DNA from: Opitutales bacterium
Lineage (GTDB): Bacteria; Verrucomicrobiota; Verrucomicrobiia; Opitutales; PNEW01
Assembly: GCA_965219535.1 (NCBI GenBank)
Contig: CBDCNV010000002.1
Location: forward strand, 930,001-962,000
DNA length: 32,000 nucleotides
Direction: 5' to 3'
Shown here piece after piece: positions 5,551 through 20,560 of this stretch. The notes below the pieces were generated by a model. That model ran no database searches and was not told where the DNA came from. It saw only the letters and a program-made list of their open reading frames with translations. Position 1 is the first letter of the stretch. Each line of letters starts with the position of its first letter. Made by a program: the position numbers and the translations under genes.

Positions 5551-5794
5551 TTAACCTCGATTGATTTTTCGAAGAGGATACGATAGCCACAAGCAGAGCG
5601 AAGCGTGATCTTCCAAAGACACAAAATGAGTTTTGTTCTAGAAATGCCATTAACATATATCAAATTGTACCGATTAGATTTATATAGATTAATATTGCAC
5701 CCAACGGGTGCATAGGTTGATAGCCAGAGGTGTAGCAAAGCGAAATCTCTGGACATAGGATGATAACACATCCCGCCCTTAAGGGGGGGAGTCA

Positions 5795-6259
5795 ATGCCC
5801 ATTTCGATGCCTGGAACTTTTAGTAATCTTCAGTACCATCTCGTCTTCAGTACAAAACACCGCCAACCCCTAATATACGATGAATGGCAACCACGATTAT
5901 ATGAATACTTTGGCGGTATACTTCGTGGAGAAAGTGGTGTGCTTTTTGAAATTGGTGGAATGCCAGATCATATTCACCTCCTATTTGGCTGGCGGACTAA
6001 CAAAGATCTAGCCTCCCTTGTTCGCAGTCTCAAAAGTAATTCATCGAAATGGATACACAGCACATTTCCCCAGAGTCGCAAGTTTCAGTGGCAATCTGGA
6101 TATGGGATATTTTCAATTAGCGAATCAGAGATTGAAAAGGTAAGTATGTACATACGAAATCAACGGCAACATCACGCACGAAAAAGTTTTAAGGATGAAT
6201 TTATTGAACTGTTGCGAGTACATCAGATTGAATATGATGAAAAATATATTTGGGATTAA
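5795..6259 (+). CDS. IS200-like Y1 (HUH) transposase / REP-associated tyrosine transposase (RAYT)
   Basis: 154-aa ORF with the HUH motif DHIHLL (H59-I60-H61) and a C-terminal SMYIRNQ motif. That motif is comparable to the catalytic-Tyr helix (QYIENQ) of IS200/IS605 TnpA. The gene is flanked by hairpin repeats. Confidence 0.9.
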   Translation: MPISMPGTFSNLQYHLVFSTKHRQPLIYDEWQPRLYEYFGGILRGESGVLFEIGGMPDHIHLLFGWRTNKDLASLVRSLKSNSSKWIHSTFPQSRKFQWQSGYGIFSISESEIEKVSMYIRNQRQHHARKSFKDEFIELLRVHQIEYDEKYIWD

Positions 6260-6272
6260 TCACCGCTTTGCC

Positions 6273-6297
6273 CGCGCCCCTTCAGGGCGCGTTTTTT
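6273..6297 (+). terminator. Intrinsic terminator-like hairpin (module D) 14 nt after the RAYT stop
   Basis: CGCGCCC-cttca-GGGCGCG followed by TTTTTT. Confidence 0.7.
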
Positions 6298-6376
6298 ATA
6301 ATACCTATTACCAGGGGTTAACACCCCTGGTTAAATGCCTTCACCCCTGCGGGGTGAAAGATTGACTAAAGCTCAC

Positions 6377-6775
6377 TGCGCCCAATGGGTGCAAAGGTAA
6401 TAGCCAGAGGTGCAGCGAAGCGAAATCTCTGGACCGCTGCACCCAACGGGTGCAAAGGCAATTAGCCAGAGGTGTAGCGACGCGAAACCTCTGGACAATA
6501 GATTATAACATATCCCGCCCTGAAAGGGCGGCGGTAATTGCGTATCGTTTTAGAATAAAAATGTAATTGTTACCCTGGCGCCCCTTCCGGGCGCGTTTTT
6601 TATAATACCTATTACCAGGGGTTAACACCCCTGGCTAAATGCCTTCACCCCTGCGGGGTGATAGATTAACTAAAGCTCACTGCACCCAACGGGTGCAATG
6701 GTTAGTAGCCAGAAGTGTAGCGAAGCGAAACCTCTGGACAATAGATTTATAACATACACCGCCCTGAAGGGGCGG
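6377..6775 (+). repeat. Gene-less tandem copies of the RAYT-flanking hairpin modules, in the order A-B-A-B-C-D-E-F-A-B-C
   Basis: A 6377-6393, 6438-6454, 6681-6697. B 6404-6432, 6466-6494, 6709-6737. C 6515-6531, 6759-6775. D 6578-6602. E 6615-6634. F 6645-6661. The D-to-D period is 305 bp. Confidence 0.9.
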
Positions 6776-6849
6776 AGGTAAATACCTATCGCTATGGGAT
6801 ATAATTACTATTTTTTCCCTACGTCCTCTTATAATTATTACAAGATTGA

Positions 6850-6953
6850 GGTGGAACGCGGTGTCCTCACCGCGTTTCTTCAGTTACAGTTAATAATAGA
6901 AGCGCGCTAGGGACCAACCTTCGCCAAGGCTATGGCAGGCAGCTCGCTCCACC
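6850..6953. repeat. GGTGGA...TCCACC mini-element bounded by inverted repeats, with internal hairpins
   Basis: It starts GGTGGAACGCGGTGtcctCACCGCGT and ends GCGCGCTAGGGAC...CTCGCTCCACC. It is related to the element at 20477-20560. Confidence 0.6.
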
Positions 6954-7009
6954 TAATTGCAATAAATTAATTATCGGATTAAGACGAAGAGTCTTATAGG
7001 ATATAGGGG

Positions 7010-15007: not shown

Positions 15008-15140
15008 TTGTTGTAAAATGTAAAAACTCAGCGACGCGACATTCCCACGGAGCTCTAAGTTTTTTCAACATAGCACCAGCGATAGCGCACCGACAACAGG
15101 AAAATTATGAATGTTATTATTTGGCATGCCAAGATTGCCT

Positions 15141-15192
15141 GCGCCCCTCAAGGGCGCAATTTTTTTCCTTTTCCAGGGGTTAACACCCTTGG
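15141..15192 (+). repeat. Dispersed copy of RAYT-array modules D and E
   Basis: GCGCCC-ctcaa-GGGCGC (15141-15157) followed by AATTTTTTT, then CCAGGGG-ttaaca-CCCTTGG (15173-15192). Order and orientation match 6273-6330. Confidence 0.85.
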
Positions 15193-15356
15193 CTATTGGA
15201 AGATGTCGGACTGCGTCCTCGGTAGCCTTCAACCCTCCGGGTTTTAGGAAACGGGAAGTCCAATCTTTGCGTTTTGATTGTGTTGCGCCGCTGGGGCTAA
15301 CGGAACTGGGTTTGAATCTTGTACAATAAAGCTTTGTCCACGTCTTTGTCAATCTT

Positions 15357-15422
15357 GTCATTGCGAGGGAGGCTATCAGCGGACCGCGGCTACCGAGCGC
15401 AGCGACATCTTCCATTCCAGGG
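15357..15422 (+). repeat. About 66-bp 'GTCATTGCGAGG...GCTACCGAGCG...CATTCCAGGG' repeat, copy R1
   Basis: Related copies lie at 15582-15646 (inverted), 24996-25061 and 25085-25124 (inverted, partial). Confidence 0.85.
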
Positions 15423-20415: not shown

Positions 20416-20476
20416 AGAGCGAATACACGTGAATGCGGATATGCGGTGAAGCGAAAATGTGCGTATGCGGAGAACT

Positions 20477-20560
20477 GGTGGAACGCGCTGTCCCTAGCGC
20501 GTTGTTTAAAATTTATATGAGAATTATGAAAGAAGCGTGCTAGGGACAGCCCGCTCCACC
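20477..20560. repeat. 84-bp mini-element with about 25-bp terminal inverted repeats (GGTGGA...TCCACC family)
   Basis: GGTGGAACGCGCTGTCCCTAGCGCG, then a 34-nt AT-rich core, then CGTGCTAGGGACAGCCCGCTCCACC. Each arm also folds on itself (ACGCGCT-gtccct-AGCGCGT). Confidence 0.8.

Follow-up and report, generated by a model that had tools for sequence, protein, structure and literature searches.

Why should a single small transposase gene sit amid an array of short DNA hairpins, and what do the two have to do with each other? The locus that raises this question lies in a stretch of 32,000 nucleotides (nt) from an Opitutales bacterium (contig CBDCNV010000002.1, positions 930,001 to 962,000; hereafter the window, in whose numbering coordinates are given unless another locus is named), where tnpA, a gene for a 154-amino-acid (aa) HUH/Y1 transposase, occupies 5795 to 6259 on the plus strand. 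An earlier note, made from the letters alone, had described six different hairpin modules, A to F, around this gene and had likened the whole to repetitive extragenic palindromes (REPs) and the REP-associated tyrosine transposases (RAYTs). The reading at which we arrive, and which we hold to be probable without being confident of it, is a low-copy mobile element with a Y1 transposase of subclass 1.2, inverted three-hairpin ends and gene-less derivatives, in which REP/RAYT logic operates on an enzyme of the type found in the insertion sequence (IS) IS200.

All of the hairpins listed in the earlier note were recovered by pattern search, against a chance expectation, estimated from dinucleotide shuffles, of only ~0-0.06 matches per pattern per window. 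Hairpin A begins at 5696, 6377 (a copy that pairs through a G-T wobble, as had been noted), 6438 and 6681; B at 5724, 6404, 6466 and 6709, the last of these (B4) with the A-C mismatch already remarked upon; C at 5773, where it contains a G-G mismatch, rather than at 5772 as first given, and at 6515 and 6759; D at 6273/6274 and 6578, with a T-run at each; E at 6311 and 6615; and F at 6341 and 6645. The module order, A-B-C, gene, D-E-F-A-B-A-B-C-D-E-F-A-B-C, is likewise correct.

The six modules are not six, however, but three in two orientations. This becomes apparent from a covariance model, R1, which was built from 89 units of the D-E-F type (taken from the window, its relatives and unrelated genomes), included zero A-B-C sequences and was run with filters off. 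The model finds the D-E-F blocks that flank and follow tnpA on the plus strand with 73-80 bits and also recovers all three complete A-B-C blocks, as full-length matches to the minus strand, with 34-49 bits; A is therefore F', B is E' and C is D', with the tetraloop of E enlarged to ~15 nt in B. A repeat finder likewise pairs A and the first half of B, as complementary sequences, with F and the second half of E, and C with D. A-B-C is, in other words, a diverged reverse complement of D-E-F, and tnpA is therefore bracketed by inverted copies of one unit of ~100 nt. In this unit D is the GC-rich hairpin beside the gene, E the central hairpin of 8 bp, which begins with CC, ends with GG, carries a tetraloop and is followed by CTA, and F a second GC-rich hairpin.

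Read in these terms, the locus runs from a minus unit through tnpA to a plus unit, a truncated minus unit, a minus unit, a linker, a plus unit and a final minus unit. The left unit (A1-B1-C1, 5689 to 5794, minus strand; R1 34.1 bits, E=7e-7, full-length) abuts the start codon, and the right unit (D1-E1-F1, 6269 to 6364, plus strand; 73.2 bits, E=1e-16) begins 10 nt past the stop codon. The truncated inverted unit A2-B2 (6370 to 6428, minus strand), which is without the C hairpin, is matched by the patterns and weakly by R1 (10.1 bits, E=0.62). It is followed by a gene-less minus/plus doublet, the left half of which is the inverted unit A3-B3-C3 (6431 to 6536, minus strand; 49.3 bits, E=1e-10) and the right half D2-E2-F2 (6573 to 6668, plus strand; 79.7 bits), joined by a linker of 36 nt (6537 to 6572). 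A further inverted unit, A4-B4-C4 (6674 to 6780, minus strand; 41.3 bits, E=1e-8), closes the array. Units are not confined to 5696-6775, as had been thought: a solo D-E-F unit with an insertion of ~30 nt between E and F lies at 15136 to 15250 on the plus strand (52.3 bits), between a gene for a 227-aa protein and rsgA. The earlier note had made its reading depend on the modules occurring elsewhere, and they do so both here and in related genomes.

Conservation of structure, which the earlier note had claimed for the repeats bracketing this single-copy gene, is borne out on two counts. When both strands are folded as single-stranded DNA (ssDNA), a check that had been proposed, every ~100-nt unit yields three hairpins whichever strand is taken, and the z-scores run from -2.8 to -6.1 (left unit 5689-5794, -3.8 on the plus and -2.75 on the minus strand; right unit 6269-6364, -6.1; unit 6431-6536, -4.3 on both strands). 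Across the R1 alignment the covariation score is 0.453, as compared to 0.138 after shuffling and no more than 0.083 when pairing partners are slid. Note that the near-perfect pairing of E arises by construction; D (80% paired) and F (77% paired) show many compensatory changes, and neither of these two hairpins was used to pick the sequences. All three stems are under selection for structure.

The most constant part of the unit besides its stems is a short tag. Directly 3' of hairpin E stands CTA, followed by C, T or A and never by G, so that the other strand reads GTAG in 38%, ATAG in 35% and TTAG in 26% of the 89 units and never CTAG; one unit is without the tag. In all 4 of the 4 B copies the equivalent TAG is found at the 5' foot of the hairpin. 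The earlier note had pointed instead to GTAG inside the B loops as a tag of the RAYT type. GTAG does occur in three of the four B loops; canonical E loops are without it, whereas TAG at the 5' foot of B is conserved family-wide, and we rejected the loop motif, which is probably irrelevant, in favour of the CTA 3' of E.

As an aside on these loops, the enlarged ones of B2 and B4 (6404-6432 and 6709-6737) contain GCGAAGC, and the ssDNA folds put a small apical stem there; we take this to be the unusually stable DNA mini-hairpin d(GCGAAGC).

What kind of enzyme is associated with these units? The protein has the HIH (residues 59-61) and YIRNQ (119-123) motifs that had been reported, and matches Pfam PF01797 (Y1_Tnp) with 105 bits (E=4e-30), the Pfam core ending at residue 123. 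Its signature residues are DHIH (58-61), W99-Q100 and Y119-IRN-Q123-RQ-H126-H127; across an alignment of 36 homologues H59, H61, W99, Q100, Y119, Q123, H126 and H127 are invariant and D58 is nearly so. In an AlphaFold model with a predicted local distance difference test score (pLDDT) of 89, helices at 123-129, 132-142 and 149-152 make up a C-terminal tail of ~30 aa, and classical IS200 proteins align to residues 12-126 only. The TnpAY1 subclass 1.2 has been defined by DH[IV]H, WQ and Y---Q--HH, a length of ~148 aa, a short core and a conserved C-terminal domain of ~30 aa; it is described as IS200-proximal and not IS-like, with 1.7 copies per genome and 36% identity between copies, hosts that are mostly Cyanobacteria and Bacteroidetes, and no partner repeats (Quentin, Siguier, Chandler & Fichant 2018, PMC6006769). 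Judged by its sequence, our protein fits this subclass in its HuH, W and Y motifs, its length and its C-terminal tail. It resembles the subclass further in its near absence from plasmids and would do so in a low copy number with divergent paralogues; what sets it apart from the published picture is that the gene and most of the homologues considered below are bracketed by a conserved inverted three-hairpin unit. The variation in the tag may explain why a search based on GT[AG]G reported no REPs for subclass 1.2.

The placement against RAYTs and IS200/IS605 transposases that the earlier note had called for comes out, by motifs, profiles and structure alike, on the IS200 side. The NCBIfam IS200 profile (NF033573) is matched with 76.1 bits, above its cutoff of 55, whereas REP_Tyr_transpos (NF047646) yields 29.8 bits against a cutoff of 80. 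The best sequence matches in the PDB are the ISDra2-type, IS200 and IS608 TnpA proteins, and a phmmer search of PDB sequences did not find the E. coli RAYT 4ER8 at E<=1. Structurally, ISDra2 and IS608 are the best Foldseek matches (E ~1e-9 to 1e-8), while 4ER8 comes at rank 30 (E 2.5e-5) as the weakest Y1 match. The comparison with RAYTs was therefore apt for the repeats, which also occur gene-less, but not for the protein, whose YIRNQ..HH motif belongs to class 1 rather than to class 2 with its Y---NP.

Nor does the gene appear to be one of many identical copies, as might have been found for an ordinary active IS. Database look-ups place it at one site per assembly and give no homologue between 57% and 98% identity. 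Among 72,556 plasmids, full-length homologues are restricted to two Bacteroidota megaplasmids, and phages yielded no full-length homologue of this tnpA type. The behaviour recalls IS200 Group 3, which has no duplicates, is not found on plasmids and has abundant flanking 16-mers (Bertels et al. 2017, PMC5581495); this group is probably the equivalent of subclass 1.2.

The arrangement had been thought unusual for this kind of genome. To the contrary, it is widespread. We considered 80 metagenomic loci with homologues of 39-56% identity, 72 of which had both flanks available, and counted units at E<=0.01. In 41 of these 72 a minus unit abuts the start codon and a plus unit the stop codon, with gaps that are mostly between -10 and +20 nt; another 18 have one such unit. 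Neighbouring units in the wrong orientation are rare (4 upstream, 6 downstream). The E stem varies from locus to locus (CCAGGGGC, CCACGGGC, CCCACGGC, CCGGTGGC, CCCGGCAA and others) yet usually agrees on both sides of one gene, and despite this variation CC...GG followed by CTA stays constant. Approached from the repeat rather than the protein, a scan of species-representative genomes for hairpin E gives 32 loci where roughly 9 are expected by chance (a rough estimate), spread over Planctomycetota, Cloacimonadota, Acidobacteria, Bacteroidota, Opitutales and others. In nearly all of the 32, GC-rich hairpins flank E both 5' and 3', and a tnpA homologue is adjacent in 3. The named hosts among these loci and the protein hits combined include Opitutales, Planctomycetota, Bacteroidota, Acidobacteria and Cloacimonadota.

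As for control loci, Persicobacter has the same layout (50 and 46 bits), Bernardetia has it weakly (16.7 bits, E=0.0036; 11.8 bits, E=0.057), and three classical IS200/IS605 loci gave no significant match to R1. The inverted-unit layout is a general architecture of subclass 1.2 across phyla rather than a peculiarity of this genome, and the three-hairpin architecture is specific to this transposase subclass.

Two of the metagenomic loci deserve a separate mention. On contig L111 (584-3027) the element of minus unit, tnpA and plus unit occurs about three times in a head-to-tail series, its period being ~955 nt and one copy fragmented. At L062 (2122-3317) one tnpA locus has E stems of two types (CCACGGGT, CCCCAGGC) in alternating orientation, which recalls the Y and Z REP types in the bacterial interspersed mosaic elements (BIMEs) of E. 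coli.

The core of the unit already has a name. Hairpins E and F correspond to the Acido-Lenti-1 motif of Rfam (RF01687): both consist of an 8-bp CC...GG hairpin, GGCUA, a spacer of ~9 nt and a 5-bp GC hairpin. In the window the best RF01687 score, 34.3 bits (E=1e-5) at 6615-6660 within D2-E2-F2, is below the gathering score of 37, and neither the window nor the related repeat loci L003 and L007 (introduced below) contain a match at gathering level; the units flanking tnpA in relatives score 37.2-57.2 bits, in both orientations. Acido-Lenti-1 was described as a probable RNA that occurs in Acidobacteria and Lentisphaerae and sometimes has group II introns nearby (Weinberg et al. 2010, PMC2864571); a 2026 preprint gives its function as unknown. 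Lentisphaera araneosa contributes ~55 copies to the Rfam seed alignment, some of which are arrayed in tandem, and full-text literature searches turned up no paper in which the motif is connected with a transposase. Where Rfam sees a small RNA (sRNA), E-F here makes up two-thirds of a longer unit, copies of which stand in both orientations beside a transposase gene.

Might the units nonetheless act as RNA, that is, as terminators, stabilisers or regulators of tnpA and its neighbours, rather than as DNA substrates of the transposase? Besides the RF01687 match, the covariation and the original rating of the motif, such a model could draw on the immediate surroundings of the gene. A Shine-Dalgarno-like sequence (GGGGGGGAG) lies within the 3' arm of hairpin C in the left unit, and hairpin D, at 6273-6291 and followed by TTTTTT, resembles an intrinsic terminator after tnpA. 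However, most relatives have no T-run after D. Moreover, both orientations are equally conserved, so that in every pair one unit would run antisense to the tnpA transcript, and this argues for a role as DNA rather than RNA. The units go specifically with one transposase subclass, the relatives of which recognise hairpins in ssDNA, and the gene-less copies are dispersed, arrayed and polymorphic in the manner of mobile DNA. We therefore regard an RNA role as improbable. Other features sought around the gene add little: no promoter of the sigma-70 type was found upstream of tnpA, by a scan that may not suit this phylum, and matches in the region to clustered regularly interspaced short palindromic repeats (CRISPR), microRNAs and other Rfam families were all far below threshold.

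Mobility of the element is suggested by closely related genomes, which differ at this site. Five species-level relatives with ~92-94% nucleotide identity at the locus differ at the spacer between the genes for a DUF3179 protein and a methyltransferase. The window and the sister species represented by locus L003 have tnpA and units there, in arrays that differ; L120 and L121 have a single gene-less plus/minus doublet; L116, L117 and L119 are without a unit. The spacer of L118 (6177-9013) holds a phage-type integrase and an IS3-family transposase. It appears to be a recurrent insertion site.

The block common to the two carriers of tnpA starts with a leader 5' of the left unit (5631 to 5688, plus strand): by blastn, 5631-6439 matches L003 9836-10647 with 95.8% identity, and the sequence upstream of 5631 is not common to both. 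The empty-site relative L116 departs, by alignment, after ...TAGAAAT, at about window position 5644. The two carriers are not each other's nearest relatives. Synonymous divergence (dS) of tnpA between them is 0.056, about four-fold lower than in ten neighbour genes (0.08-0.58, median ~0.22), and the ratio of non-synonymous to synonymous divergence (dN/dS) is 0.15. The low dS implies that the element has been exchanged or has moved since the carrier lineages split.

Gene-less units show a mobility and a persistence of their own. The RsgA and DUF3179 proteins of the window fall into clusters, at >=90% identity, with those of a chromosome assembled as an Opitutales metagenome-assembled genome (MAG), OY829953.1 (4.5 Mb). 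This chromosome, in which we infer tnpA homologues above 57% identity to be absent from what the protein database holds, has the minus-linker-plus doublet at locus L007, with the same linker sequence as the window and L003 (9456-9499); neither L007 nor its second repeat locus, L026, is syntenic with the window. In one Cloacimonadota MAG the dispersed gene-less copies number at least 14. The solo unit at 15136-15250 has orthologues in the corresponding intergenic spacer of two sister species: that of L123 (51 bits) contains the insertion, that of L122 (33 bits) lacks it. In the genome of L003, the equivalent spacer between the 227-aa gene and rsgA is otherwise unrelated in sequence and contains, at L124 1944-2043, a well-preserved unit (73 bits) whose E stem differs (CCCACAGC) and which lies on the strand opposite to the window's solo unit. 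Units can thus persist over the lifetimes of species, and the genus harbours several unit types; the L124 unit implies a second unit type and perhaps a second cognate tnpA.

Several observations on these repeats stand apart. The linker (6532-6577) and the trailer after the last unit were compared, by local alignment against shuffles, with the 5' and 3' ends of tnpA, of which they might have been fused remnants, without a significant result (p ~0.05 for the 3' half; nothing for the 5' half or the trailer). At L026 there is a unit variant in which a related insertion separates E from F. In the solo unit itself the first 12 nt of the insertion (15197-15228) are perfectly complementary to 15403-15414, 194 nt downstream. 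A second repeat of ~107 nt (GAGGTGGAACGCGGTGTCC...CAGCTCGCTCCACCT), unrelated to the units and with imperfect terminal inverted repeats of 15 nt, is found at 6848-6955 and again at 20475-20493; the equivalent spacer has it in the same orientation in L119 and in the opposite one in L116, and another lies near the L007 repeat cluster.

With these comparisons in hand we can ask whether a more familiar system would do. Imagine first a classical domesticated RAYT with its REP/BIME cluster, inherited vertically, itself immobile and maintaining a large REP population. A single-copy gene, syntenic in two species and with a dN/dS of 0.15, would be in keeping with this, as would flanking inverted repeats with a (D)TAG tag that reads GTAG in over a third of the family's units, the BIME-like array in alternating orientation and the solo units kept across species. 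The protein argues otherwise, through its REP_Tyr_transpos score, its Y motif and its remoteness from 4ER8. So does the history of the gene, which is absent from the locus in at least 3 of the 5 sister species, is carried by two species that are not closest relatives and has a dS too low for strict vertical descent. The repeat loci seen, two in 32 kb, demonstrate no large repeat population. We consider a domesticated RAYT the least likely of the scenarios discussed here, and very unlikely in absolute terms.

A second scenario, an ordinary IS of the IS200 group with the usual subterminal hairpins and tandem deletion derivatives resembling miniature inverted-repeat transposable elements (MITEs), with nothing RAYT-like about it, has more in its favour. 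The NCBIfam equivalog is above cutoff and IS200, IS608 and ISDra2 provide the enzymes nearest in both sequence and fold; at ~680 bp the element compares well with theirs at ~0.7 kb, and has hairpins near both ends; the ribosome-binding site within a hairpin and the terminator-like hairpin are found in IS200 too; and presence/absence polymorphism, low dS and gene-less doublets are all what one would expect. However, the end hairpins of IS200/IS605 elements read on the same strand and have no inverted ends, whereas the ends here are inverted copies of a 100-nt unit. Such elements are usually multi-copy and near-identical, whereas this gene was found at one place per assembly without near-identical paralogues in the database, and the copy number and identity reported for the subclass (PMC6006769) are not IS-like either. 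Plasmids and phages contain hardly any full-length homologues, solo units have been kept at orthologous sites in different species, and classical IS200/IS605 loci do not match the unit model. On balance an ordinary IS200 seems to us unlikely, if less so than the RNA and RAYT models.

The mobile-element reading that we prefer is not free of difficulties either, and the following points weigh against it. Thirteen of the 72 homologue loci with both flanks available have no unit at E<=0.01. Two unit loci in the 32-kb window and three exact E matches in OY829953.1 are far below classical REP abundance. Neither the element ends nor the target site could be fixed from the empty-site relatives, in which the spacers have been remodelled and the second repeat type interferes. 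Recombinational exchange, as opposed to transposition, could in principle account for the low dS of tnpA. G-T versus A-C mismatches, which might have told on which strand the units fold, number 3 vs 20 in D, 18 vs 7 in F and 2 vs 4 in E, an asymmetry that is contradictory, partly an alignment artefact and identifies no strand. Finally, with inverted ends the same-strand peel-and-paste geometry of IS608 and ISDra2 does not transfer directly.

Keeping these points in mind, we suggest as the best reading a low-copy mobile element from the IS200 side of the family, one that functions in the manner of a REPtron. It shares with the REP/RAYT systems (E. coli TnpA-REP and the Pseudomonas RAYTs) an apparently single-copy Y1 gene between palindromic repeats in inverted orientation, a hairpin with a comparable short tag at its foot (GT[AG]G in REPs, DTAG here), gene-less inverted doublets, arrays in alternating orientation and stems that covary with the associated gene. 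It differs from them, apart from the class of its protein, in a unit of ~100 nt with three hairpins as opposed to one palindrome of 20-40 nt, in the low copy number seen here and in that the gene-bearing element has apparently moved or been exchanged recently.

How might such an element operate? Where DNA becomes single-stranded, for example at a replication fork, the hairpins would extrude, and TnpA might recognise hairpin E together with the CTA/TAG tag and then cut and rejoin nearby through its HUH motif and Tyr119; recognition and cleavage of this kind are proposed by analogy with the TnpA proteins of IS608 and ISDra2 and with E. coli TnpA-REP (PMC6006769, PMC3479197). What the sequences show is the anatomy, its association with the gene throughout the family, the covariation and the differences between species, while binding, the cleavage sites and the strand used are inferred. 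The gene-bearing element would have moved rarely, gene-less doublets or single units in trans, and the alternating-orientation units downstream of tnpA would be non-autonomous copies, resembling a REPtron/BIME cluster. Hairpin D may double as a terminator after tnpA, and the inverted copy C may sequester the ribosome-binding site in a way that recalls IS200 regulation.

A bolder proposal is that Acido-Lenti-1 is not an sRNA but the ssDNA recognition module of a distinct class of Y1 element (TnpAY1 subclass 1.2) that is found in several phyla, has inverted three-hairpin ends and gene-less progeny, and is a living intermediate between selfish IS200 elements and domesticated RAYT/REP systems. We put this forward tentatively, as a possibility to which we would give slightly less than even chances. 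If it is true, the inverted symmetry of the ends implies a cleavage geometry unlike that of IS608 and of E. coli TnpA-REP, and two orphan entities, an Rfam motif without a function and a transposase subclass without partner repeats, would explain each other. The link supplies a concrete biochemical substrate, hairpin E with its CTA/TAG tag, flanked by D and F. For annotation, Acido-Lenti-1 matches beside small IS200-like genes would be read as element ends rather than as sRNA genes. REP/RAYT-type logic would reach the IS200 side of the Y1 family as well as Verrucomicrobiota, Planctomycetota, Bacteroidota and others, and would offer a system for asking how a selfish Y1 element becomes a resident gene that maintains its repeats, a question Bertels et al. 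raised for IS200 Group 3.

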